This document shows positions 25,481 through 52,780 of a stretch of DNA of 64,000 nucleotides, piece by piece. How positions within the stretch are numbered: position 1 is the first letter of the stretch; each line of letters opens with the position of its first letter. The stretch covers positions 84,687 through 148,686 of the forward strand of contig DATBLI010000095.1 of NCBI GenBank assembly GCA_036555455.1, read 5' to 3'. Source of the stretch: Thermoplasmata archaeon. GTDB taxonomy: Archaea > Thermoplasmatota > Thermoplasmata > RBG-16-68-12. The translations under genes and the position numbers were made by a program. The notes beneath the pieces are model-generated. The model was not told the DNA's origin. It did no database searches and saw only the letters and a program-made list of their open reading frames with translations.

Positions 25481-26512
25481 CTAGCGCTCCGCGATCGTCT
25501 CCTGGATCTTCATGCCAAGGTGCCGGCCGCCTTCATCGCGATGTAAGAGGATCTCATCGCCAGGCCGAATCTCCCTCACCGACCGGCCGCCCCCGGCGGG
25601 CGTGACGAACCGGATCGTCTCCGCGTTCTGCACGATCGTTGAAAAACGCTGGCCCTCGGCGACCGCCTCGAGCAGGACGAGCGGCCTTTGCTCGATCTTG
25701 ACGCGGCCGACGATGACGCTCCGAGCCTTGCCCTGCGCATCGACGGCGAGCACCTCGTCCCCGGCACGGAGCTCGCTGAGGTACTTCGTCATTCCGCCCG
25801 GGAGGAGGATGTACGCATGGACAGGACCTGCGTTCACGCGGAAGGGCCGGGGCGCGATGCGGCCCGACTCGATCGTCTCCGCGTGGACGAGGAACAGGCC
25901 CGCGGATGCGTTCCCGACGAGCATTCCCTCTCCGTCCTTCAGCAGGGAGCAGGTATCCACGCACACGCGGTCCCCGAGGCCGAGGGGACGTACGGCCGTG
26001 ACTGTGCCGACGACTAGGTGCACGGAGTTCGGATGAGACTCGAGGAGCCGACGGACGGTGCGGACCTCCTTCGCGGAACGCGGAGCGAGGAGGACGCCGT
26101 CCACCCCGACTTCCATGGTTTCGAAGAACAGCTTCGCCTCCGCCGCGTCATGGATTTCAGGAAGGAGCTTCGTCCCGCTCCCCTGGAAGGCGGCAATGAG
26201 GTTCTCCATCGGGATGACCTTCCAATCCTCCGTGCGCACGACGACATGCTTCGTCGCGCCGCGCAACCTGCGCACGGACTGCTCATCCTCCCCCCGCCGG
26301 ATCGTGGCGAGACGGCCGACCTCCTGGCCATCGAAGAGGAAGACGTCGCCATTCAGGCGAATCGGCGAGAAACGGCCGAGGCGCTGCAACGCCTCTGCCG
26401 GCCGGTCGAAGACGATCTGATCGAAGCCGGACTCGAGCGCGGCCGTCACGACGGACCGGACGTCCTCATTGTCTTCGGAGGGGAATGCCCCCACCCACAC
26501 GAGGCGGTCCAT
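25481..26512 (-). CDS. aroB': 3-dehydroquinate synthase II (archaeal, ADH-dependent)
   Basis: 'VWVGAFPSEDNEDVRSVVTAALESGFD', 'HVVVRTEDWKVIPMENLIA', 'ETMEVGVDGVLL' are typical of the DHQS-II family. Start ATG 26512. Confidence 0.85.
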   Translation of the reverse strand: MDRLVWVGAFPSEDNEDVRSVVTAALESGFDQIVFDRPAEALQRLGRFSPIRLNGDVFLFDGQEVGRLATIRRGEDEQSVRRLRGATKHVVVRTEDWKVIPMENLIAAFQGSGTKLLPEIHDAAEAKLFFETMEVGVDGVLLAPRSAKEVRTVRRLLESHPNSVHLVVGTVTAVRPLGLGDRVCVDTCSLLKDGEGMLVGNASAGLFLVHAETIESGRIAPRPFRVNAGPVHAYILLPGGMTKYLSELRAGDEVLAVDAQGKARSVIVGRVKIEQRPLVLLEAVAEGQRFSTIVQNAETIRFVTPAGGGRSVREIRPGDEILLHRDEGGRHLGMKIQETIAER

Positions 26513-26519
26513 GGCGACC

Positions 26520-27305
26520 TCACCCCCGATAGGCCTCCTCCACGGACGCACCGTCGAAGAGGATGCGGGCCATCGCATGTGTCATGCCGATGGGATCCTT
26601 TGCCTGGAACAGGTTCCGGCCCATGGAGACGCCCGCCGCGCCGCCGGCGAGCGAACCGGCGACAAGCTCGAGGGCTGCCTTCTCGGTTTCGAGCTTCGGA
26701 CCGCCGGCCACGACGACGGGCACGGGACAGCCTCGGACGACCTCCCTGAACGTCCCCGGAGAACCCGTGTAGAGCGTCTTGACGACGTCCGCGCCGAGCT
26801 CCGCACCCACGCGGGCGACGTGCTTCACGATGTCGACGTCGTACGGGTTCTTGATGTTCTCGCCGCGGGGGTACATCATCGCGAGGAGGGGCATCCCGAA
26901 GCGGTCGCACTCCGCGGCCACGGCCCCCAGCCCCCGAAGCATGAGATCGTCGTCCTCGCCGCCGAGGTTCACATGCACGCTGATCGCGTCCGCGCCGTAG
27001 GAAAGGGCCTCGGCGACGCCCGTCACGAGGACCTTGCGGTCCGCTTTCGGGCTGAGGGAGGTGGACGCGCTGAGGTGGAGGATGAGGCCCAGGCGCTCGT
27101 CGAAGTACTCCTTCGCGAAGCGCACGAGTCCCTTGTGCATTGCGATTGCCGTCGCACCGCCTTTGGCCACGTTGGCCACGGCCTTCCGGATGTCCTCAAG
27201 GCCCGCGATGGGGCCCGAGGAGACGCCGTGGTCCATCGCGACGATGAGGGCCTTGCCCCGGCTGAAGATGCGGTGAAGCCGAATCTCCTTCCCAATCGCG
27301 GACAT
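26520..27305 (-). CDS. aroA': 2-amino-3,7-dideoxy-D-threo-hept-6-ulosonate (ADH) synthase, DhnA-type class I aldolase family
   Basis: 'GKALIVAMDHGVSSGP', 'LILHLSAST', 'GADVVKTLY', 'VVVAGGPK', 'GVSMGRNLFQ'. Start ATG 27305. Confidence 0.85.
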   Translation of the reverse strand: MSAIGKEIRLHRIFSRGKALIVAMDHGVSSGPIAGLEDIRKAVANVAKGGATAIAMHKGLVRFAKEYFDERLGLILHLSASTSLSPKADRKVLVTGVAEALSYGADAISVHVNLGGEDDDLMLRGLGAVAAECDRFGMPLLAMMYPRGENIKNPYDVDIVKHVARVGAELGADVVKTLYTGSPGTFREVVRGCPVPVVVAGGPKLETEKAALELVAGSLAGGAAGVSMGRNLFQAKDPIGMTHAMARILFDGASVEEAYRG

Positions 27306-27399
27306 AGGACAGAGGGCCGCGCGACGGCGTGGCACGGCAGTACGTGGTTGTGCTAGATGAACCTTCCCAGACATGCGCGATGAATTCGCCGAATACCCT

Positions 27400-28335
27400 T
27401 CAGATACGGGCCGGGTGTCGGAGGTCGAGCCCCGCGAGAATCTGGACGGCGACGCGGTCCGTCTCCTTAGATCCCGAGAGCGCGGACCACGCGATGTCCG
27501 CGAGAGGAGAGCGCAGATGAATCTCGTGGAGGACTTCGTCCTCGAACGACGCCTGCGGAGGTTGTTCGATGACCGCAATCACTTGGCGCACGTCCTCGTG
27601 GCGTCCTGGGAACCACGGCGAATGGTACGCTTCGTCGACGGCGAGGAAGCAGCGGTGTTTCTCTGTTCCCGCGCCCATCCCGAACCGCCACTCTTTCGTG
27701 CGGCCCAGGATCCGTTTGACGGGGCCGAGGTCGCTCTTCGCGAGGACGGAGGCGAGGCTCGCGGCGAGCTTCGCCATCACTGACCCCATCGCCCCGAAGG
27801 CCCTCGTGAGGGGGACCTGCGGGAATGCCCGGAGGAGCTCGTCGTTCCCGAAGGCCACGAGGCCATCCACGCGCTCACGGAGGATAGCGAGTTGCGCCTC
27901 CGCGGCCTGCCGCCGCAGCATGCCCTCCGCGGCGAATGGAGTCGTCACCAGGGCGAGGCTCGTGTCTCCGAGAATCCGCGCGACTCGGCCGACGACGCCG
28001 GTGGCCCAGCCGCCGAAGTCACCCCCAAGTCCTCCGAGGATCACGACGAAGTCCCGGTCCTTGAGGGCGCTCGCGAGGTCCTTCTCCTCGTTCGTCGCGA
28101 GGGTCGGCACGACCTTCTCCTGGAGGGATGCGACCGCCTTGATGGGCTCCGCCTTCGCCAGGATGCGCGCCGGGAGGCCGACCATGGAAGGATGGGGCAC
28201 GTCATTGAGGGCGATGCGTTCCGCGCCGAGCGGCAGAGTGACGCGGCGCAGGGTGTTGCATCCCGCGCCGCCACAACCCACGATCGCCGCGCGGGCCCGC
28301 TCCTCGCCGCCACCCAGGCGCCAGGTTTCGGGCAC
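27400..28335 (-). CDS. FtsZ/tubulin-superfamily protein with degenerate GTP-binding motifs
   Basis: Colinear with FtsZ: 'AIVGCGGAGCNTL' (G1-like), 'VVILGGLGGDFGGWATGVVGRVA' (in place of GGGTGTG), 'LALVTTPFAAEG', 'VDGLVAFGNDELL', and a C-terminal domain 'WRFGMGAGTEKHRCFLAVDEAYHSP'. Confidence 0.7.
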   Translation of the reverse strand: MPETWRLGGGEERARAAIVGCGGAGCNTLRRVTLPLGAERIALNDVPHPSMVGLPARILAKAEPIKAVASLQEKVVPTLATNEEKDLASALKDRDFVVILGGLGGDFGGWATGVVGRVARILGDTSLALVTTPFAAEGMLRRQAAEAQLAILRERVDGLVAFGNDELLRAFPQVPLTRAFGAMGSVMAKLAASLASVLAKSDLGPVKRILGRTKEWRFGMGAGTEKHRCFLAVDEAYHSPWFPGRHEDVRQVIAVIEQPPQASFEDEVLHEIHLRSPLADIAWSALSGSKETDRVAVQILAGLDLRHPARI

Positions 28336-28436
28336 GGCCGCGGCATCGGGAGGCCACGAGATAAACCGCGCGGGAAAGGGTGGGATGAGGGCCCACGACG
28401 GAAACGTGGATATGGCAACGGAAGTTGCCTCCTACG

Positions 28437-29639
28437 ATGGTCCGTCAGGAGCCGCCGTCCCAGGCCGAGGCGATTATCGTCGGAGGCGGGTGCATGGGGG
28501 CGAGCGCCGCCTTCCACATGGCTCGCCGTGGAGTCCGCGTCGTCCTCGTGGAGAAAGGGCACATCGCCTCGGGTGCGACGGGGCATAGCGGCGCGATCGT
28601 GCGACAGCACTATGAGTCGCGCGTCGGTGTGCGCCTCGCGCGGGAAAGCCTCCGCTTCTTCCAGCGTTTCGAGCGGGAAATAGGCGGGTCATGTGACTTT
28701 CGGACCACGGGGTTCCTCTCGGGGACTCGTGAGCGCGACCTCCAGGCCTTCGAGGGCCTCTTCGAACTCCTCCAATCGGAGGGCATCGGCGTGCGTAAGC
28801 TCACACCCCAGGAGGCCAAGGAGGTGGAACCGCAGCTCGAGGTCTCCGACTACGCTACGGTGGTCCACGACCCGGATGCAGGCTACGCGGACCCCGTCGC
28901 GACCGCGAATGGGTTCGCGTCCGCCGCGGAGCGGGATGGGGCGATGCTCCTCGAGGACACGATGGCCCGGGGCCTTGTGTCCCGCAAAGGACGTGTTGGC
29001 GGGGTTCGGCTCCGCGGGGGAAGGGCGATCGCCTCCGAACGAGTCCTCCTCGCCGCGGGGAACTGGACGCCCGCCCTGGCCGCGGAGGTTGGCCTGCGGC
29101 TCCCCATCCGCTTCGTCCGAGGCAACGTGGCGATCCTCCGGAGACCTGCAGGATTCGGTGACCCGCCGAAGATTCACTTCGACTTCTACCACAACACGTA
29201 TTCACGTCCGGAAGCGGAAAAGGACATCCTCGTAGGCTACATGGACACGGATCCGCGAAGGACCGTGCGCCGCCACGAACTCGCAGACGACTCCGTCCCG
29301 GCGGCTATCGTGCGGGACTTGCGGTCACGCCTTGCGGGGCGCTTTCCCGCCATGGCTCGTGGGCAGCCCCGAGGCGGTTGGGCGGGAGTCTACGACGTCA
29401 CGCCGGATTCCTATCCAATCGTGGACCAAATGGCGCTGGAGGGCCTCTTCGTCGCGGCCGGGTTCAGCGGCCATGGGTTCAAGCTCTCGCCCGAGATCGG
29501 GCGGCTCCTCGCGGAACTCATGACCACGGGAAGCAAACCGGAGGGCTTGCGGCCTTTGAGGGGCTCGCGGTTTCGGGAGGGAGCGCCGATCCGAAAAGAC
29601 GCCCCTTTCCCCAACCGAGGCGCACCGAGGCTACCCTGA
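28437..29639 (+). CDS. FAD-dependent oxidoreductase (DAO / sarcosine-oxidase-beta-like)
   Basis: Rossmann motif 'AIIVGGGCMGASAAFHMARRGVRVVLVEK', 'GHSGAIV', 'GFSGHGFKLSP'. An alternative TTG start lies at 28425. Confidence 0.8.
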   Translation: MVRQEPPSQAEAIIVGGGCMGASAAFHMARRGVRVVLVEKGHIASGATGHSGAIVRQHYESRVGVRLARESLRFFQRFEREIGGSCDFRTTGFLSGTRERDLQAFEGLFELLQSEGIGVRKLTPQEAKEVEPQLEVSDYATVVHDPDAGYADPVATANGFASAAERDGAMLLEDTMARGLVSRKGRVGGVRLRGGRAIASERVLLAAGNWTPALAAEVGLRLPIRFVRGNVAILRRPAGFGDPPKIHFDFYHNTYSRPEAEKDILVGYMDTDPRRTVRRHELADDSVPAAIVRDLRSRLAGRFPAMARGQPRGGWAGVYDVTPDSYPIVDQMALEGLFVAAGFSGHGFKLSPEIGRLLAELMTTGSKPEGLRPLRGSRFREGAPIRKDAPFPNRGAPRLP

Positions 29640-30413
29640 AGCTTTGTTCTGCGGTGCGCGCCGAGGCCCACGGTGGTGCCATGCGACGAGGGCCTCCGCC
29701 GTCACAGTCCATGACCGAAGCGCGGCCGAGTGAATCGATACGACGCGGTCGCAGAGCTTCTCGACCGGGCTGCGGAAGGTTCCGTGGGGGAAGCCACCCA
29801 CGACCCCGACAAGATCCCCCCTCACCTTCGCGAACTCCCTCGGCAGGTCGATCGGTTCGCCTGACTCCGCGAAGGCCCAGCTCTCCCCCGGCAAGTCGGA
29901 GAGCAGGGTTTCGAGGGACACGCCCCCCTGGAGCGTGATGAGCGACTCCTCGTCGGGCACATGCCCTCTCTGGAACAAGTCCTCCATGAGGCCGACGAAA
30001 CGCGAATAGTTCTTTGGGACGCGCGTGTCCGGGCGGAAGCGCAGGACTTCGTCGTTCCGCGTGTGCACGATCGTCGTCAGGCCACCTTCGAGGTTGACGA
30101 CGGAATCGAGACAGAGGAGGACGAAGAGGTGGACGATGTCGGGACGACCGCGGCGCTCACCGTTGGGGAAGTTGCGCAGGGCCGAATGGTGCAGACTCGA
30201 GTCGAGCAGGATCGCCGCGGGGGATCGACCGCGCTTTCTCGCGGAGGCACGGACCGCAGGATGACCCGCGAGCTTGGGTGGGACCGGTTCCAGTTCCGCG
30301 TCCGCAAGGACGAGGGTGAGCACGCCGGCGGTATTCGCGGACGGCGCTTGAAGGTCTGCGGGAGGGCGAGCGTCATCGCTGCCGTCGGAAGACGGGAGGT
30401 TCGCCACTTTCAC
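29631..30413 (-). CDS. nep1: ribosomal RNA small-subunit methyltransferase Nep1 (Emg1 family)
   Basis: 'LTLVLADAELEPVP', 'RGRPDIVHLFVLLCLDS', 'VHTRNDEVLRFRPDTRVPKNYSRFVGLMEDLF'. There is no ATG. The candidate starts are GTG 30413 or GTG 30407. The rest of ORF 29631..31616 is the shadow of mre11. Confidence 0.8.
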   Translation of the reverse strand: MKVANLPSSDGSDDARPPADLQAPSANTAGVLTLVLADAELEPVPPKLAGHPAVRASARKRGRSPAAILLDSSLHHSALRNFPNGERRGRPDIVHLFVLLCLDSVVNLEGGLTTIVHTRNDEVLRFRPDTRVPKNYSRFVGLMEDLFQRGHVPDEESLITLQGGVSLETLLSDLPGESWAFAESGEPIDLPREFAKVRGDLVGVVGGFPHGTFRSPVEKLCDRVVSIHSAALRSWTVTAEALVAWHHRGPRRAPQNKASG

Positions 30414-30423
30414 CCACCCGCCG

Positions 30424-30437
30424 TTAAATACTATATG
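30424..30437. promoter_or_regulatory. shared AT-rich TATA-like element between divergent nep1 and mre11
   Basis: 'TTAAATACTATATG' is centred about 31-38 nt upstream of the mre11 ATG (30465) and about 17-23 nt from the nep1 GTG candidates. Confidence 0.4.
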
Positions 30438-30464
30438 TAGCCGGGCGGCGATGCGTCGGCAAGG

Positions 30465-31655
30465 ATGCACGAGATCGTCTGCACAGGGGACGTCCACGAG
30501 GGATTGTCCTTCGAGTTCCGCATCGACCCGGAGACCGGGATCTCGGAGCGTGCGATGGACCTCCATGGTAACTTCGCGAAGGCAGCGAAATGGGCGATCG
30601 ACCATCAGGCCTCCCTCTTCTGCATCCTGGGAGACCTCTTCGACCGCACGCACGTCGCGCCGGTGTTCCGGGAACTCGTGCGACGCGACGTCATTGAGCC
30701 CCTCGGGGAGGCGGGGATTGAGGTGTGGATCCTCGCCGGGAATCACGATCAGCCGAGACGGATCGCGCGATCCACATCCCTGGATGACTACCGCGGCTAC
30801 CCCCACGTCCGCGTGTTCCGCGAGCCCACGGTCGAGACCCGCGAGATCGGCGGGAAGAGGGTCGGGTTCGTCCTCCTGCCCTACCTCCACCCGGAGCAGG
30901 TTGTGGAGCAGATCCAGAGGAAGCTCGGAAAGGACGTCCCGCGGGAGGAAGCCTATGAGGCCGCCCGGCGACTCTGGAAGGCGTGGATTGAGAATCGCGC
31001 CGCGGAGTTGAAGGACGCTGACCTCCGCATCCTCTTCGGGCACTTCGAGTTCCAGGGCGTGCGGTACGCGAGCACGGCACCGGCCGAGATCGTGCCCCAC
31101 GACTTCACCTTCACCCGGGACATGCTTCCGGATTCGGTGGACCTCGCAGTCTTCGGCCACATCCACATGCACCAGGCCCTCTACGGCAAGGTCGTCTACA
31201 CGGGCGCACCGGAGAGAATCGACTGGGGGGAGCGCGTCGACCCGAAGGGCTTCCTCGTCGTTCGGCCCGACGGCACCTGGACCTTCGAGGAACTCCCCGC
31301 GCGGCCGATGGTCAAGGTCGATGTCGCGGTGGGCATCGGGGACGACGTCACGGGCCGAATCCTCGCCGCCCTTCCCGAGGATGTCGCGGGCAAGCTCCTG
31401 CGCCTTGAGATCCGCCTTCCCGACGAACTGCGGAGCCAGGTCGACGAGAAGAAGATCGACGAGAGGCTGCGGGACGCCTTCCACTACGAAATCAAGTTCG
31501 TGTCCACGGAGCGCGGGCGCGTGGTCACGGAGGAATTCACGATGGACCCGATGCGGCTCCTCGCGGACTACGTGGACAAGACCTTCGCCGACCACCCGCG
31601 GAAAGAGGCAATCCACACGGAGGCGCGGCGCATCCTGAAGGAGGCCCTCGCATGA
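30465..31655 (+). CDS. mre11: DNA double-strand break repair nuclease Mre11
   Basis: Phosphoesterase motifs 'TGDVHEG', 'ILGDLFD', 'LAGNHD', 'FGHFEF', 'VFGHIHMHQ'. Confidence 0.92.
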   Translation: MHEIVCTGDVHEGLSFEFRIDPETGISERAMDLHGNFAKAAKWAIDHQASLFCILGDLFDRTHVAPVFRELVRRDVIEPLGEAGIEVWILAGNHDQPRRIARSTSLDDYRGYPHVRVFREPTVETREIGGKRVGFVLLPYLHPEQVVEQIQRKLGKDVPREEAYEAARRLWKAWIENRAAELKDADLRILFGHFEFQGVRYASTAPAEIVPHDFTFTRDMLPDSVDLAVFGHIHMHQALYGKVVYTGAPERIDWGERVDPKGFLVVRPDGTWTFEELPARPMVKVDVAVGIGDDVTGRILAALPEDVAGKLLRLEIRLPDELRSQVDEKKIDERLRDAFHYEIKFVSTERGRVVTEEFTMDPMRLLADYVDKTFADHPRKEAIHTEARRILKEALA

Positions 31656-34057
31656 AAGGCGCGGACGCGGTCGAGGCCGAGACCGTGGAGGCCCTCGAGG
31701 CCGCGCCGCCCTCGGAAGGTTTCGTCCTCGAGGAGGTCGAGATGCGGGGCTTCATGCGCTACTTGGAGCGTACGGACCCGCCCCTCCGCTTTCCGGAGAA
31801 GTTCACGGTGATCACGGGACGAACAGGGGCGGGCAAGTCGTCGATCCTCGATGCGATCACCTTCGCCCTCTACGGCTCCACGGCACGCACGGACATCCAG
31901 AACGTGAAGACCTCGAGCATTTGCCGTCCGGGGGGATACGTGCGGGTGGCCTTCCGACAGGGGGAGAGCCGATGGGAGGTGAAGCGCGGGTTCACGTCCC
32001 GACGGGAGTCGTACCTCGAGGTCACGCGGGACGGGGAGTCGGTCCAAGGGACGATCCCAGAGAAGGACCAGACGATCCGCGAGGTGATCGGCCTCGATTA
32101 TGAGGGCTTTCGCAACTCCACGTTCGTGCGCCAAGAGGAGATGAAGGAGCTTGGCGCCCAGCGCGGCGCAGACCGGCTCGCGGTCTTCCAGAAGCTCTTC
32201 CGCCTCGAGGTGTTCGAGGGGGCCTTGGGGCGCGCGAAAGAGCAGCTGTCCTCGTTGCAGACCGACCTGAGGGCGAAGGACGCGGAGATCGCGGCGAGAC
32301 AGGAGGCACTTCAAGTCCTCCCGACTGCGAGAGAAGCCCTCGATGGTGCCCTGAGGGAACTCGTGAGCCGGAGGGGAGCAGCTCTGAATCTCGAACTGCG
32401 GGTCCGGGAAGCCGAGGCCTCCCTGAAGGAGCTTGAGGCGGACCACGAGGCATGGCTCCGCGCGACGTCGGCTCAGGAGGATCGCACATCCCGCCTTGGG
32501 AAGCTCGCGAAACGGATCGAAGGGGTGCGCTTTCAGAGCGAGGAGACGACGGACCTCAAGGACGAGCTCGAGATCCTCGAACAGGAGGTCGCGGACCTCG
32601 ATGCACTCCGTGAGATTGCGGATCAGCTTCGTGAGAAATCCCAAGCCCATGAGCGGCGACTCCAAGCCGCCCAAGCCGCGGAGAAGCTCTTCAGTCAAGC
32701 GAAGAAAGACCACGAGCGGCGACGGGACCAGATCAAAGACAAGATCGACCAGCTTCACCGGAAGATCGCATCCCTGAGGACGGATGTCGATCGAGACGCG
32801 GCCTTCGAGTTCCTCCGGGACGAGGGGCGGCTGGAGGAGCGGGTCGCCCGCATCGAGAGGGAGCTCGAGTGGCTCGCGGACCGTCCAGAACTCACGAAGG
32901 AACTCCACGCGGAACGCACCCGCACGGAAAAGGCTCTCGAACACGTGCGCGCGAAGGTGCAATCCGTTGACGCGGACTCCTTTGTCCTGACGGAACTCCG
33001 GCGGCAGCTCGAGGAACTCAAGGAGGAACTGCGCCGGGAAACAGAGGAGAGTCACCGGATCCTGAAGCCCCTCGACGACGACAAGATCGAGGCCCTCCGT
33101 GCCCTCGACGCCGCGCCGTTCGCAGAGGCGGATCAACGCCGTCTCGCGGACGTCTCGCAGCAGGTCCAATCGAAGGCCGCCCAGCGTCGGAGGGCCGACG
33201 AACTCGCGAGCCGACTGAAAGAAGCCGGGGACGCGAACGTCCTCCTCGCGGACCTCGAACGACAGCGAGCCGGGCTGGAGGAGGAGACGAGGATGGCCGA
33301 GGCGGCGATGCCTGGGCTTCGGGAGAGAGAGGAAACGTACCGCAGAGGCAAGGAGCAGCTCGAGCGCCAGCGCGCGGAACTCGACGTCTCCCGCCGCGAA
33401 CTGCACGTCCTCGAAGGCCGCACGAAGCAGCTCGAGGCCCAGATCGATGCGCTCGAGGTCGACGCACGTCGTCTCAAGGAAGCGGAAGGGCAGAGGGACG
33501 AGCTGCGGATGCGGATCGAGCTCATGGACATCCTCGTGAACCGCGTATTCCACAAGCGCGGGGTGGTCATGTACGCGGTTGACCAACTCCTGCCCGAGCT
33601 CGAAATCGAGGCCTCAAAGAACCTCTCCGAACTCACGGACGGCCGGTTCAGCCGGATCAAGCTCGAGACGTACGAGGAGGGGAGGGGCCACGGGATCCGC
33701 ATCCAAGTCCAAGGAGTCGACGACGGGTGGCACGACGTCGGCGAATTCAGCGGGGGCGAGAAGACGCAGATCAACGCGGCCCTGCGCTTCGCGATCGCGC
33801 GGCAGCTCGCCTCCCTGCCCCAGGCGGGCCGGGCCTTCGGCCGGATGAAGACCCTCTTCATCGACGAGGGCGACCTCGGGTCCCTCGACACGGAGGTCTC
33901 GCGGGAACTCTTCGTGCAGAAGCTCTTCCGGATGGGCGAGTTCTTCGAGAAGGTCATCCTCATCACGCACCTCCAAGAGGTCGCGGACCGGTTCCCAGGC
34001 CGGATCCGAATCACGATGACGCCGAACCAGGAGTCCCGGGTGGAAGTCCTCGCATGA
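31652..34057 (+). CDS. rad50: Rad50-type SMC-like ATPase (no zinc hook visible)
   Basis: Walker A 'GRTGAGKSSILDAITFALYG', long coiled coil, signature 'FSGGEKTQ', Walker B 'LFIDEGDLGSLD', 'LITH'. ATGA overlap with mre11. Confidence 0.9.
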   Translation: MKGADAVEAETVEALEAAPPSEGFVLEEVEMRGFMRYLERTDPPLRFPEKFTVITGRTGAGKSSILDAITFALYGSTARTDIQNVKTSSICRPGGYVRVAFRQGESRWEVKRGFTSRRESYLEVTRDGESVQGTIPEKDQTIREVIGLDYEGFRNSTFVRQEEMKELGAQRGADRLAVFQKLFRLEVFEGALGRAKEQLSSLQTDLRAKDAEIAARQEALQVLPTAREALDGALRELVSRRGAALNLELRVREAEASLKELEADHEAWLRATSAQEDRTSRLGKLAKRIEGVRFQSEETTDLKDELEILEQEVADLDALREIADQLREKSQAHERRLQAAQAAEKLFSQAKKDHERRRDQIKDKIDQLHRKIASLRTDVDRDAAFEFLRDEGRLEERVARIERELEWLADRPELTKELHAERTRTEKALEHVRAKVQSVDADSFVLTELRRQLEELKEELRRETEESHRILKPLDDDKIEALRALDAAPFAEADQRRLADVSQQVQSKAAQRRRADELASRLKEAGDANVLLADLERQRAGLEEETRMAEAAMPGLREREETYRRGKEQLERQRAELDVSRRELHVLEGRTKQLEAQIDALEVDARRLKEAEGQRDELRMRIELMDILVNRVFHKRGVVMYAVDQLLPELEIEASKNLSELTDGRFSRIKLETYEEGRGHGIRIQVQGVDDGWHDVGEFSGGEKTQINAALRFAIARQLASLPQAGRAFGRMKTLFIDEGDLGSLDTEVSRELFVQKLFRMGEFFEKVILITHLQEVADRFPGRIRITMTPNQESRVEVLA

Positions 34058-35082
34058 GCTACCTGGACGACCTGCACAAGGAGCTCGATCTCCTTGTGCG
34101 CAATCAGAAGAACCTGCCGATCCCCGAGGAAGACGTACCGGAGTTCCACATCTTCCGTCCACGGGATCCGGTGCGGGACATGGTCGCCGTGGACGGGTCC
34201 TACACCTTCCTCCTGAACCTCTCGAGCTGGTGGCTCGCCCTCCTCTCCGTGGGCCTGCTCCGGTACGGGTTCGACGGCGCGCGGTTCCGGAAGAGGGACT
34301 GGCGGCTCACCCAGCGGATGATCGGCATTTCGACATTCGAGGAGTTCGTGGCGAAGCAGGACGACCTCCACCGCTCCCTGTTCGACTTCACCCGCGGCCG
34401 GGAAGAGCAGCCGAGGGACATGGTGAACGAGTATCGCCGTTGGCTCGAAGGACAGCTTGCGATCAACTTCGCGGACGATTTCGAGGATGGGATCATCGCC
34501 GTGGACGGTACCCTCTCCGAGTTCCCGAAGCAGTTCACGTTCATGGGCCGCCTCGTCGAGGTGTGCAAGAAACGCGGCCACGTCCTCGTTGGGATCTCGA
34601 AGGACAGCCAGCTCCACGCGTTCGGCCAGGTCCTCACGGACGAGGACTTCCTCGCGAAGGCCCAGAGGGGGCTCCCGCGGGGCAGCCTCGCCTATGTCCG
34701 TGCACCCGCGGAGTCCGAGGCAAAACGAGAGGGCCTCCTCCACGGGGACATCTATTACGCCCGCCTCCATCCCCAGGCGAGGAAGTGGTTCCGCGTGGAT
34801 GTGGGCGCGTTCCGGGAGGAGCCGGATTTCGTCTTCGGGGAGCTCGCGCCGTACGCGAAGAGCCTTGTGTCCGTCGGCTATCCGTGGCCCCTCATCGAGG
34901 CGCACCGGATGGCCGTGACCGTGCGGCAGCTCAAGCCCGTGTATCAGGAGACGGTGATGCGCGCGGCATTGCGGATGGGGTTGGATGTAAGGACGATCCT
35001 GGACGGGCTGACGCAGATCGAGGGCCGCAAGCGAAGCGCCTTCCATGAGTACCTGGACAGGGTCGCGAGGGACCTGCGATGA
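34054..35082 (+). CDS. nurA: NurA 5'-3' nuclease
   Basis: 'MVAVDGSY', 'IIAVDGTLS', 'VLVGISKDS', 'YPWPLIEAH'. The ATG at 34054 overlaps the rad50 stop. Confidence 0.85.
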   Translation: MSYLDDLHKELDLLVRNQKNLPIPEEDVPEFHIFRPRDPVRDMVAVDGSYTFLLNLSSWWLALLSVGLLRYGFDGARFRKRDWRLTQRMIGISTFEEFVAKQDDLHRSLFDFTRGREEQPRDMVNEYRRWLEGQLAINFADDFEDGIIAVDGTLSEFPKQFTFMGRLVEVCKKRGHVLVGISKDSQLHAFGQVLTDEDFLAKAQRGLPRGSLAYVRAPAESEAKREGLLHGDIYYARLHPQARKWFRVDVGAFREEPDFVFGELAPYAKSLVSVGYPWPLIEAHRMAVTVRQLKPVYQETVMRAALRMGLDVRTILDGLTQIEGRKRSAFHEYLDRVARDLR

Positions 35083-36632
35083 AGATTGGGGAGATCGTCG
35101 CGGGATCCGTGATCGACGGGCTCATCGCGAAGCTCCAGCTGAACAACCCCGAGGAGCTGCGGATCGCGTACCCCGTCATCGTGGAAGGGGAGCGGTACGA
35201 CTTCTACTGTCTCGTCGAGGACGTCATGAACGAGCCGAGCGACATCGCGGACCAGCTCGCGGGCTCTTCGATCAGCGACATCGTCGTGCCTCGGCCGGAG
35301 ACCCACGAAGGGTACGGTGGGCCCATCTTCTACAGCAAGGCGAAGCTTCGGATGATCCAGCTCATCGACCGCGAGATGAAGGCCCTCAGCGAGCCCCAGA
35401 CGATCCCGCCGTACTTCAGCGAGTGCCGCCACGCGACCCGCGAGGACGTGGAGAGAATCTACACACCCACCGCGAAGTCCGCACCGTTGGGCACGATTAC
35501 GGGCGTCGAGCCGTTCTACGTCCACCTGGACATGGAGAAGCTCGTGGAGAAGCCCTTCGCAATCTTCGGCCGCACGGGCACCGGGAAGTCAATCCTCAAC
35601 AAGATCGTGTGCACCGCGATCCTCTCCCGCGACGCCGGGAGCGTGTTCATCTTCGACATGCATGGGGAGTACGGCGTGTACAGCAAGACAGACGGCACGG
35701 AGGGTCTGAAGTACTACTTCCCCGGCAAGGTCGAGATCTTCTCCCTCGACCCGAAGAACCAGGAGGCGAGGCCGTTCGTCCTCGACGCCGCGCAGATCAC
35801 CCCGGAGGACCTCATCATCGCCTTCCAGGATTTCACGCCGCCGATGATCGACCACATCTACCAGATCTGGCGGACGAAGCCACGGGAGGTTGACCTCATC
35901 ACCGCCATTCGCGAGCATCAGGTGACCCAGGGGGAGATCGAGGGCGGCCAGATCCATCTCATGGTCATCCAGGCCCTCCAGCGCCGGATGGGTCGGTTCG
36001 ACCGATTGCCGTTCGTCAAGCCTGGCGGCAAGGATGCCTTCTCCCAGATGCTCGCGACGATCAAGGCAGGCCGATCCGTCGTCCTGGATTTCGGCGATTA
36101 CGGCACGGACCCGATGGTCTACCTCTTTGTGGCCAATGTCCTCGCCCGACGCCTCTTCGACTTGTACACGGAACAGACGGGCGAGTACCCGCGCCTCGTC
36201 CTGTTCCTCGAGGAGGCCCACAAGTTCCTCGACCCAAGGATCGCGGAGTACAGCATCTTCAGCCGCCTCGCCCGCGAGACTCGGAAATTCAACCTGATCC
36301 TCGCCCTGATCGACCAGCGCCCGATGCGGATCGATGACGAGGTCCGCAGCCAGCTTGCGAACCGGCTCATCATGTCCCTCAAAGAGCCCTCCGACGTCGA
36401 GAGTGCCCTGGCCGGCGTGCCGGACAAGGCGATGTGGATGAACATCGTGGCGAAGCTGCCCCTCCGCACGGTGGCGGTCCTCGGGGACGCGATCCGCATC
36501 CCGACGGTCATCGATGTCCTCGAGTACGACGACCTCAAGGTGCGGAAGCACCTTCTGCCCGCGGCGGCTGTGGACGAGAGCACGATGCGGGAAATCTCGA
36601 AGCGCGCGGACGACATCTTCGGACGCGGCTGA
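35079..36632 (+). CDS. herA: HerA helicase (FtsK/HerA-family ATPase)
   Basis: N-terminal HAS-barrel-like 'GEIVAGSVIDGLIAKL', Walker A 'IFGRTGTGKS', Walker B 'LVLFLEEAHKF'. ATGA overlap with nurA. Confidence 0.9.
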   Translation: MKIGEIVAGSVIDGLIAKLQLNNPEELRIAYPVIVEGERYDFYCLVEDVMNEPSDIADQLAGSSISDIVVPRPETHEGYGGPIFYSKAKLRMIQLIDREMKALSEPQTIPPYFSECRHATREDVERIYTPTAKSAPLGTITGVEPFYVHLDMEKLVEKPFAIFGRTGTGKSILNKIVCTAILSRDAGSVFIFDMHGEYGVYSKTDGTEGLKYYFPGKVEIFSLDPKNQEARPFVLDAAQITPEDLIIAFQDFTPPMIDHIYQIWRTKPREVDLITAIREHQVTQGEIEGGQIHLMVIQALQRRMGRFDRLPFVKPGGKDAFSQMLATIKAGRSVVLDFGDYGTDPMVYLFVANVLARRLFDLYTEQTGEYPRLVLFLEEAHKFLDPRIAEYSIFSRLARETRKFNLILALIDQRPMRIDDEVRSQLANRLIMSLKEPSDVESALAGVPDKAMWMNIVAKLPLRTVAVLGDAIRIPTVIDVLEYDDLKVRKHLLPAAAVDESTMREISKRADDIFGRG

Positions 36633-37492: not shown

Positions 37493-38302
37493 ATGTCCAT
37501 GTCCGCCCTGATTACGGAATATCCCGCGGTGGCGATCCCCGAGATCCGCGTCGAGACGCGCGGGGCCCTCGCGACGACCGTGCCCGTCCTCGATCGAATC
37601 CTCGGGCCCTTCGAGGCGGGACGCATCACCCTCATCGACAGCGGGAGCGACTTCCTCTTCCACCTCACCACGCTCCTCTGCGTCCGCGCGGTCATGGAGG
37701 GCGAGGACGTCGTCTTCCTCGACGGCGGGAACTCCGTCGATCCGCACGGCATGGTGGCCCTCGGGAGGCGTGCGGGCCTCATTCGGGAGGAGATCCTCCC
37801 GCGGGTCCACGTCGCGCGGGCGTTCACGTGTCACCAGATGACCACATTAATATTGGACATGATGGATGAGAAACTCGCGGAGACGGACGCCGGCTTGCTC
37901 GTCCTTGCCTGCCTGCCGTCGATGTACCTGGACGAGGATGTGCCCGTGGGGGAGGCCCACCAGCTCTTCCAGCGGTCCGTCCGCGCGATCCGTCGCACGG
38001 TCGCGGATCGGGAGGTCGTGGCCCTCGTCACGAACGCGGGGATGGGGAAGCTGTACCGGCGCCGCTCGATACGACGGCAACTCTACGAGTCCGCGGACCG
38101 CGTCGTCCGCATGGCCCACGGGAGCGGAGGCGTCCTCGTCGAACGGCTCGACACCGGGGCGATGGAATGGTTTCGCCCTGTGCGGCCGGACCAAACGACC
38201 CTGGAGGACTTCACGGACGCGCGGCCAAGGATCGTCGACCTCGCGTCCGCGGGTGCGCCCGGGCCGATTCGCCACGCGGAATATCTCCGGCTGGGCTGGT
38301 AG
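37493..38302 (+). CDS. RadA/RadB (Rad51)-like RecA-fold protein lacking Walker A and Walker B
   Basis: 'VPVLDRILGPFEAGRITLI', 'VVFLDGGNSVDPHGM', 'ILPRVHVARAFTCHQM', 'VVALVTNAG' are colinear with the RadA/RadB core. The P-loop position reads 'DSGSDFLFHL'. TATA-like 'CTTTATATC' (37459..37467) lies about 30 nt upstream. Confidence 0.65.
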   Translation: MSMSALITEYPAVAIPEIRVETRGALATTVPVLDRILGPFEAGRITLIDSGSDFLFHLTTLLCVRAVMEGEDVVFLDGGNSVDPHGMVALGRRAGLIREEILPRVHVARAFTCHQMTTLILDMMDEKLAETDAGLLVLACLPSMYLDEDVPVGEAHQLFQRSVRAIRRTVADREVVALVTNAGMGKLYRRRSIRRQLYESADRVVRMAHGSGGVLVERLDTGAMEWFRPVRPDQTTLEDFTDARPRIVDLASAGAPGPIRHAEYLRLGW

Positions 38303-52375: not shown

Positions 52376-52780
52376 TCAGAGGTTGCCCTTGATCTTCGCC
52401 CGGTCGATCTTGATCCCCGCAGGCGTCGCCATCAGGAGGTTCTTCCCGATGACCGCGACATCGCCGCCGGCATCGCGCACCGCGGCCTTGAGCTCCGCCG
52501 TGATCCGCTTGAGCGCCAGCTCGTCGCTCGCGAGGCTCGTGTAGTCGAGGAGGAGGATGTTCCCGTTGTACACGTGGGTCGTGAGGTCGTTGATGTCCTC
52601 GTAGCGGTAGACCTCCGCGACCTTCACGAGGTGCTCCACGGGTTCCCCGAGGGCCCCGCCTTCGCCTTCGAAACTCAACTCTCCCAGGTCGATATACGTG
52701 TCCGCCTCGGCAGCGGTGCCGCCTTCGGCGAGGCGCTTGAATGGCTTCTTGATAAACGCCATCCCGAATCCCTTCTGCAT
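52376..52780 (-). CDS. sepF: archaeal cell-division protein SepF
   Basis: 'TYIDLGELSF', 'VKVAEVYRYEDINDLTTHVYNGNILLLDYTSL', 'GGDVAVIGKNLLMATPAGIKIDRAKI' are colinear with archaeal SepF (DUF552). TATA-like 'CCTTTAAATT' (reverse of 52801..52810) lies about 26 nt upstream of ATG 52780. Confidence 0.85.
   Translation of the reverse strand: MQKGFGMAFIKKPFKRLAEGGTAAEADTYIDLGELSFEGEGGALGEPVEHLVKVAEVYRYEDINDLTTHVYNGNILLLDYTSLASDELALKRITAELKAAVRDAGGDVAVIGKNLLMATPAGIKIDRAKIKGNL

Follow-up and report, generated by a model that had tools for sequence, protein, structure and literature searches.

A tail-less family of FtsZ paralogs in Thermoplasmata with derived GTPase loops and a recurrent place beside mre11-rad50

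The gene considered here occupies positions 27400..28335, on the minus strand, of a 64,000-nucleotide stretch of DNA (referred to below as the window) that covers positions 84,687 to 148,686 of contig DATBLI010000095.1 in the assembly GCA_036555455.1 of a Thermoplasmata archaeon. Its open frame runs from a GTG start at 28335 to a TGA stop at 27400-27402 and encodes an FtsZ-like protein of 311 residues without a C-terminal tail; the N-termini of its orthologs, which read MP(D/E)TW, align with that GTG start. Alignment and phylogeny show that the protein belongs to a monophyletic and so far undescribed family of Thermoplasmata FtsZ paralogs, which is a new family-level variant inside the FtsZ/tubulin superfamily. 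With moderate confidence, and partly by analogy with engineered FtsZ mutants, we propose that it may cap or stabilise the polymers of canonical FtsZ as a partner that does not hydrolyse GTP, in a modulation tied to DNA damage or to the state of the chromosome.

The similarity of the protein to FtsZ is full-length and beyond chance, because profile, sequence and structure comparisons all return it. The NCBIfam model TIGR00065 (ftsZ) matches residues 12-298 with an E-value of 1.4e-26, Pfam Tubulin matches residues 78-169 only (39.1 bits for a cut-off of 33), and the best phmmer match in the PDB is the Methanocaldococcus jannaschii FtsZ homolog 1 (E-value 3e-23, residues 12-295). An AlphaFold2 model obtained with a 29-row family alignment reached a mean predicted local distance difference test score (pLDDT) of 94.3 and a predicted TM-score (pTM) of 0.92, and a Foldseek search with it returned FtsZ structures at E-values around 1e-24 and TM-scores of 0.75-0.81 over 304-325 columns, all listed matches being FtsZ. 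Model and search agree in that the full two-domain FtsZ fold is present, with the GTPase domain, helix H7 and the C-terminal domain, and point to no fold outside the FtsZ superfamily. In this regard, the sequence-only reading of this DNA, which had claimed colinearity with FtsZ from the segments AIVGCGGAGCNTL, GGLGGDFGGWATG, LALVTTPFAAEG, VDGLVAFGNDELL, SDLGPVKRIL, WRFGMGAGTEKHRCFLAVDEAYHSP and VQILAGL, is borne out, since all of them are found in the translation. It was also correct in taking the protein for neither a canonical FtsZ nor a CetZ. On TIGR00065 the protein scores 93.7 bits and does not reach the canonical threshold, set by an equivalog cut-off of 295.2 bits, whereas the four canonical copies of the same genome score 330-425 bits. 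Membership in CetZ was rejected because none is found among the 49 PDB sequence matches (E<=0.01) or the listed Foldseek matches, all of which are FtsZ. CetZ proteins keep their GTPase motifs.

A detailed view of the loops, read from an alignment with the genome's own canonical FtsZs and M. jannaschii FtsZ1, reveals that part of the nucleotide-binding site is retained and part of it replaced. The T1 loop, GCGGAGCN (residues 20-27, 28255..28278, minus strand like all positions within this gene), is kept, with G20, G22, G23, G25 and N27 conserved in all groups of sequences, and both T5 (PFxxEG) and T6 (ND) are intact. The NTD of T2 is one residue shorter and reads N-D. In the place of T3 there is a segment without GxGAG, AEPIKAVASLQEKVV (residues 62-76, 28108..28152), whose residues 62-69 form a short helix in the AlphaFold2 model; in canonical FtsZ, GxGAG plays the role of a gamma-phosphate sensor. 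The T4 loop reads GLGGDFGGW (residues 102-110, 28006..28032) instead of the canonical G(L/M)GGGTGTG, so that the tubulin signature GGGTG[ST]G is absent and GGDFGGW stands in its position, with W110 found in 99% of 122 orthologs. Gly184 (27784..27786) takes the place of the helix H7 aspartate, which 94% of 54 canonical sequences carry. Moreover, the T7 region (residues 198-208, 27712..27744) has suffered a five-residue deletion, and its DFxD reads DLGP, as seen in both alignment and model, where only two residues separate H7 (176-197) from H8 (200-212). The T7 loop of one FtsZ subunit is what completes the GTPase site of its neighbour, and the NxDxxD synergy loop with its catalytic aspartate is not present in the window protein. 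The C-terminal linker and tail are missing as well: the protein ends 8 residues past the last strand, against 0-4 in its orthologs and 0-8 in the family overall, and 24-28 more in the FtsZ1-like copies of the same genome. The previous description of an altered T4, an unrecognisable T2/T3 GxGAG segment and a T7 region reading SDLGPVKRIL is thus supported by alignment, which finds the GTP-binding loops divided between T1, T5 and T6, that are kept, and T3, T4 and T7, that are altered. For catalysis, pseudo-GTPase is a fair label, because the T7 residues that would activate GTP hydrolysis are lacking. Compared with its closest solved sequence relative, the archaeal FtsZ1 of M. jannaschii (PDB 1FSZ/1W58), the protein shares the two-domain fold and T1, T5 and T6, but it has lost T3 GxGAG, the H7 aspartate, the catalytic aspartate of T7 and the linker and tail, carries GGDFGGW in T4, and does not have the N-terminal extension.

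The term eroded, originally applied to these motifs, does not fit them. Across 122 orthologs at 50-100% identity, which form part of a monophyletic family, the derived states are strictly maintained, and the idea that relatives might carry no ortholog at all is answered by the same alignment. Since the derived residues are themselves almost invariant, the comparison shows that the FtsZ-like protein is under purifying constraint. Two criteria, the T7 deletion and the identity to the window protein, served to bin the 247 aligned sequences, and T4 and H7 change in steps from bin to bin. In canonical FtsZ (n=54), T4 has Gly in 100%, Thr in 98%, Gly in 100%, Thr or Ser in 99% and Gly in 100%, together with the H7 aspartate in 94%. 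Distant family members (n=57, a bin that includes the genome's short paralog on contig C24) read GG, Glu (43%), Thr (71%), Gly and Ser or Thr (68% and 17%), with Asp at H7 in 52% and Asn in 35%. Intermediate members (n=14) show GG, Glu (57%), Thr or Met (57% and 28%), Gly, Gly (57%) and Trp (57%), with Gly at H7 in 57%, and the window's orthogroup (n=122) reaches GG, Glu, Gln or Asp (68%, 18% and 9%), Leu or Phe (50% and 44%), Gly (100%), Gly (100%) and Trp (99%), with Gly at H7 in 92%. As judged from this alignment, the series shows a stepwise loss of nucleotide-contacting side chains that has gone furthest in the window's lineage. The T3 helix, the T7 deletion with loss of the catalytic aspartate and the absence of a tail are fixed across the family, in which T1, T5, T6 and also R141 are conserved throughout; the additional losses, of both T4 threonines and of the guanine-contacting H7 aspartate, belong to the window's lineage.

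Two other explanations can be weighed against this series. The first one, that an FtsZ duplicate is in decay as a relic or pseudogene, would account for the loss of canonical motifs and has next to no chance of being right: the frame is intact, the AlphaFold2 model is confident, the derived motifs are 92-100% conserved in the 122 orthologs and the family spans several orders, a conservation that refutes decay. The second one proposes a third, self-polymerising cytoskeletal FtsZ that would bind GTP, build its own filaments through a non-canonical interface and serve a shape or structural role in the manner of CetZ. In this line, T1, T5, T6 and R141 are conserved, GG-x-T-G-S/T and an Asp or Asn at H7 persist in the distant members, and all characterised members of the superfamily form filaments, as stated in the portion of the authors' response by Makarova and Koonin that was available (PMC2875224). 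A polymer devoid of the T7 catalytic residues would not turn over, however, both the T4 threonines and the H7 aspartate are lost in the window's lineage, and there is no tail for anchoring, so this explanation is regarded as unlikely.

The family was delimited in several ways. A word-indexed search with the window protein gave 294 matches, the best 120 of which are proteins of 262-342 residues at 54-100% identity, with name labels such as Thermoplasmata, Methanobacteriota and Euryarchaeota RBG_16_68_13. An exhaustive search of 50%-identity representatives retrieved 22 clusters at E<=1e-30 and, below these, a long series of proteins of ~300-313 residues at 22-45% identity; the representatives that were aligned share the five-residue T7 deletion, the absence of GxGAG, an SPW motif and the lack of a tail. 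The window protein shows the same features, at a tail-less length of ~300-313 residues, and so do the products of all 20 loci fetched from the class (coded families f1, f2, f3, f6, f9, f20 and f27). In a quick IQ-TREE tree of 78 rows under LG+C20, with no named CetZ sequence among them, the family accounts for 37 rows on one side of a branch with a support of 96 in the SH-aLRT branch test and a long stem, and the window protein lies inside a nested clade of 7 family rows with support 100. The family stands in an open trichotomy with a 27-row archaeal clade, which holds the genome's three copies closest to M. jannaschii FtsZ1 (one of them at 383 bits), and with a 6-row clade, which holds the more divergent copy encoded just upstream of the window (285 bits). 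These two clades are labelled FtsZ1-like and FtsZ2-like by inference from PDB scores rather than from named references. A profile of the family gives median scores of 215 bits for the FtsZ1-like clade, the highest, 185 for bacterial FtsZ and 169 for the FtsZ2-like clade. On TIGR00065 (cut-off 295) the scores of five distant members are 94-133 bits, and no model of Pfam or NCBIfam covers the family, Pfam seeing Tubulin and sometimes a weak FtsZ_C. In the ESM Atlas the corresponding cluster has 1412 members, is automatically named 'hypothetical protein' and has Thermoplasmatota as its commonest phylum.

As for distribution, the 201 genomes of the class searched at E<=1e-50 include 24 others from the window's order, of which 18 have matches, and the 6 genomes of one coded family (f4) within that order all lack them. 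GTDB records with family members are metagenome-assembled genomes labelled Thermoplasmata, Methanobacteriota, Euryarchaeota, Methanomassiliicoccales and Methanomassiliicoccaceae. The 29-row alignment has no conserved stretch that could serve as a search pattern, and a 14-row alignment gave a single one, which also matches canonical FtsZ; the loci collected by pattern search are a lower bound on the range of the family. When a profile was run over 301 genomes of the phylum (E<=1e-45), the scores ran from 248 to 387 bits for family members and up to 245 for canonical FtsZ, the two kinds not being separable by score, and among the 150 matches listed all those from other classes were frames of at least 358 residues, typical of canonical FtsZ. 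Among the genomes searched, this hints weakly at a restriction of the family to the class Thermoplasmata.

Other divergent relatives of FtsZ have been described. FtsZl1 and FtsZl2 also coexist with canonical FtsZ and were predicted to have no direct role in division, according to the accessible part of PMC2875224. In that same part, FtsZl1 is presented with a coiled-coil C-terminal domain, no identifiable T6-H7 and genes for vWA-domain proteins as neighbours, and membership in it was rejected because the window protein has T6 (ND), H7 and an FtsZ-type C-terminal domain and is encoded near aroA', a DAO-family gene, Nep1 and mre11. FtsZl2, presented there as proteobacterial, with T1, T4, T6 and T7 all conserved and an extra C-terminal region of ~300 residues, was discarded too, given the lost T7, the total length of 311 residues and the Thermoplasmata host. 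The CetZ proteins are further archaeal paralogs in the FtsZ/tubulin superfamily that do not drive division, as far as the sections seen of PMC13556191 and PMC11621097 go. Within the literature searched there was no description of the family or of a linkage between FtsZ and mre11, with the reservation that supplementary lists and trees of PMC2875224 and PMC9871819 could include members; the partial text of PMC4153887 has 0 occurrences of FtsZ.

The genome itself (94.7% completeness, 6.2% contamination) encodes six proteins of the Tubulin family, namely the tail-less FtsZ-like protein, four canonical FtsZs and a short one reduced to the N-terminal domain. The count of canonical copies, which the earlier reading had left to be made and which came to the four scoring 330-425 bits, should be taken with caution because of the contamination of the bin. 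They comprise an FtsZ1-like tandem pair on contig C12 (locus L002, 102-1205 and 1273-2445), an FtsZ1-like copy on contig C36 (locus L001, 991-2178, minus strand) and a more divergent FtsZ2-like copy at 79594-80073 of contig C95 (locus L004), ~4.6 kb before the start of the window. Tandem FtsZ1-like pairs recur in other metagenome-assembled Thermoplasmata genomes (loci L058, L062, L073 and L085). The short protein is a second degenerate member of the FtsZ family, encoded on contig C24 (17914-18372; locus L005, 1375-2211, plus strand) in a frame of 279 residues that contains only the GTPase domain. It matches Pfam Tubulin with 92 bits and TIGR00065 with 157 bits over profile positions 9-211, lacks GxGAG and the FtsZ C-terminal domain, has a T4 that reads GLGGAAGTG, is strongly acidic, with a net charge of -25 across the aligned core, and appears as a long branch near the FtsZ2-like clade.

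Around the FtsZ-like gene, the neighbours that persist across orders are the genes for double-strand-break end resection. In the window, mre11 (30465-31655), rad50 (31652-34057), nurA (34054-35082) and herA (35079-36632) form a plus-strand cluster at 30465..36632, divergent to the FtsZ-like gene and 2.1 kb from it, head-to-head. Between both lies an inserted pair (28425..30332) consisting of a DAO-family oxidoreductase dependent on flavin adenine dinucleotide (28425-29639, plus strand) and Nep1/EMG1 (29631-30332, minus strand). The nurA assignment is marginal (Pfam NurA, 21.6 bits for a cut-off of 21; the open reading frame trimmed to 34230-35048 has no Pfam match), and herA matches DUF87. Downstream of herA, a plus-strand open reading frame of 269 residues (37493-38302) shows a weak match to the Rad51/RadA family (27.4 bits, cut-off 22, residues 69-183). 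Across the class, mre11 or rad50 is found within 6 kb of the family gene in 14 of 20 loci and, in a further set of unique named loci from which three duplicates of the first set had been left out, within 8 kb in 9 of 12, which makes 23 of 32 unique loci, always in divergent orientation. If three negatives with less than 1.8 kb of upstream sequence are set aside, 23 of 29 informative loci are linked. The positives include other orders, where the FtsZ-like protein is 26-30% and Mre11 22-28% identical to those of the window. The 65 FtsZ loci outside the family in the same scan served as a control, and no mre11 or rad50 match was found in them, with a query that may be too distant for the bacterial ones. 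In four loci (L022-L025) the FtsZ-like gene directly adjoins mre11, with start codons 143-322 bp apart. By eye, an element of the form TATATAGGTTC-N3-GGGAA-N-GTC-N4-5-GAAAGT was seen beside mre11 in L022, L023 and L046, more weakly in L024 and L025, all in the window's order; the TATATAGGTTC element spans the putative TATA box of mre11 and extends upstream of it, and is a possible regulatory site. In two loci of coded family f3 where mre11 is not adjacent (L028, 1544-5978, in genome G142, and L029, 2336-5986, in genome G047), six to seven tandem paralogous open reading frames of ~180 residues, without any Pfam match, precede the FtsZ-like gene.

Such a neighbourhood could also mean that the protein works directly with Mre11-Rad50-NurA-HerA, for example as a nucleotide-dependent scaffold or clamp at DNA ends or in chromosome positioning, and not with the FtsZ ring. 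As an accessory of DNA repair it would be in keeping with a resection cluster that is the only cross-order conserved neighbour, with a core that does not have the acidic charge of canonical FtsZ (by charge analysis, suggestive only, the isoelectric point of the protein is 8.0 and that of family cores ~7, near neutral, versus ~5 for canonical cores), with the lack of a tail to bind SepF and with the remodelling of both loops of the longitudinal interface. Yet Pfam and NCBIfam reveal no DNA-binding domain or motif in the protein, the linkage to mre11 has been lost in part of the loci, and Thermoplasmata lineages without the family exist, two coded families (f11 and f23) having given weak or no FtsZ matches in a search made for FtsZ only. 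Altogether, this role is possible, with the probability clearly on the low side.

The preferred reading, a non-hydrolysing partner of canonical FtsZ, starts from what the protein has lost. With neither T7 catalysis nor a tail, it would most likely be a partner of FtsZ polymers and not their motor: it would not stimulate GTP hydrolysis in an adjacent subunit, for want of a SepF-binding tail it would not be anchored at the membrane in that way, and its nucleotide binding may, in the window's lineage, be weak, altered or absent. By binding one end or face of FtsZ1/FtsZ2 polymers it could then cap or stabilise them, without a division-motor role, and its head-to-head position with mre11-rad50(-nurA-herA) suggests that this modulation might be coupled to DNA damage or to the state of the chromosome. 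The four canonical FtsZs of the genome are available as partners. SulA and MciZ are bacterial proteins that stop FtsZ polymers from growing by binding an end or face of FtsZ, which SulA does in the response to DNA damage. The PDB entries titled 'SulA:FtsZ' (1OFU) and 'FtsZ:MciZ' (4U39) appear among the structure and sequence matches. Both are functional analogues of the proposed mechanism with unrelated folds, whereas the candidate inhibitor here is itself an FtsZ paralog. The functional model is offered by engineered T7 point mutants, whose poisoning of division the proposed capping would be expected to resemble. In the portion consulted of bioRxiv 10.1101/2020.06.04.133736, Haloferax volcanii FtsZ1 mutants with the T7 aspartate changed to alanine inhibit division and assemble jointly with wild-type protein into hyper-stable filaments. 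These T7-loop mutants (FtsZ1 D250A, FtsZ2 D231A), in which hydrolysis in the neighbouring subunit is likewise not activated and which inhibit division in a dominant manner, are single-residue laboratory changes with T3, T4 and tail intact, while the FtsZ-like protein is an ancient paralog of natural origin in which several loops are remodelled and whose co-assembly with FtsZ would be a prediction.

Several observations weigh against a partnership with FtsZ. T3 and T7, the two loops of the longitudinal interface, are both remodelled, and Pfam FtsZ_C does not detect the window protein's C-terminal domain, for which reasons co-assembly with canonical FtsZ is not assured. The near-neutral core, compared with a canonical isoelectric point of ~5, hints at different partners, and it is this property, together with the remodelling of both interface loops, that keeps alive the alternatives of a repair scaffold and a self-assembling filament. 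Regarding the coupling to DNA damage, the linkage to mre11 is real and unusually persistent, as an observation of gene order only, and six informative loci, from coded families f3, f6 and f20, no longer show it. At least two lineages have acquired unrelated genes between the pair (DAO and Nep1 in the window, an Na+/H+ exchanger in coded family f9), therefore a shared promoter is not required, and no motif common across orders was found by eye in the intergenic regions between the FtsZ-like gene and mre11, where only TATA-like boxes were seen. Moreover, a distant clade has a wider syntenic block of unrelated housekeeping genes, so part of the mre11 linkage may be inertia. After a greedy filter against overlaps, applied before clustering neighbour frames since shadow open reading frames are a feature of these high-GC genomes, the neighbours at distant loci comprise an Na+/H+ exchanger, a TP_methylase, Trm5/TYW2, a dCTP deaminase-like protein, an M42 peptidase, DUF72, GNAT and a PKD protein, with no common theme.

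On its other side, the FtsZ-like gene is followed by the shikimate operon, whose first gene, aroA' (a DeoC/LacD-type aldolase, 26520..27305, minus strand), starts with an ATG at 27305, 94 nucleotides downstream, and is followed by aroB'. The placement just upstream of this operon had been pointed out from the sequence and holds for the window, but the arrangement is local to close relatives, the cross-order neighbour being mre11-rad50. Shikimate genes follow the FtsZ-like gene in 8 of the 32 unique loci, all of them at 53% identity or more to the window protein, and are absent beside it in every locus below 53% as well as in one at 66% (L019). A functional tie to the operon, by co-transcription or through a metabolic or regulatory role, could be read into the common orientation with aroA', the 94-nucleotide gap without an oligo-T run and the adjacency in the eight loci. 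It is disfavoured, to the point of being very improbable, by the restriction of that adjacency, by a fold that offers no enzymatic rationale, and by the conservation of a promoter-like TATA element of the family's own. This element, TTTATC (28360..28365, minus strand), was found by inspection of the sequence ~28 nucleotides 5' of the GTG, and TTTAT(T/C) elements stand at equal spacing in the loci of orthologs; we infer that it is the gene's own promoter, with a leaderless-type spacing. Three metatranscriptome runs yielded short low-depth contigs only, some with loose ends inside the FtsZ-like gene. Near-identical DNA to window positions 26500-31700 (0.96-0.99 of the sampled words) occurs in 17 metagenome runs from peat, wetland and soil, belonging to 16 coded studies, and 16 of these 17 carry a flag as a possible source of the assembly; the occurrence points to a widespread soil or wetland population of Thermoplasmata.

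The window also encodes SepF, as previously noted, ~24 kb away: a PF04472 domain is matched at 52406..52627 on the minus strand (50.5 bits), in a gene that is single-copy in the genome. SepF binds FtsZ through the C-terminal tail of the latter, as described in the part seen of PMC8178401. A partnership between both products, hinted at by the sequence-only reading, has no support and was rejected, since the FtsZ-like protein ends 8 residues after its last strand without the SepF-binding tail and nothing else links the two genes.

These genes currently carry labels such as 'cell division protein FtsZ' or 'hypothetical protein', and should not be counted as division FtsZs. The series that goes from GG-x-T-G-S/T with Asp or Asn at H7 to GG-x-F/L-G-G-W with Gly at H7 is a natural experiment in the passage of a tubulin-superfamily GTPase to a pseudo-enzyme. 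Little has been described on the regulation of the Z-ring in archaea that divide with FtsZ and on its coupling to chromosome integrity. Of the homologs of proteins that interact with bacterial FtsZ, the available text of PMC8178401 names only SepF and MinD for archaea. In this context, a class-wide and constrained paralog without hydrolysis activation or an anchor tail is a candidate regulator, and its recurrent place beside a double-strand-break resection operon leads to a falsifiable hypothesis relating damage to division. In its boldest form, which is speculative and probably wrong in at least some part, the protein would be a natural 'dominant-negative' FtsZ that freezes or caps FtsZ1/FtsZ2, coupled to Mre11-Rad50-NurA-HerA as a DNA-damage checkpoint and, in the window's lineage, acting independently of nucleotide. 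If true, Thermoplasmata would possess an archaeal DNA-damage division checkpoint made from FtsZ itself, SulA-like in its logic.

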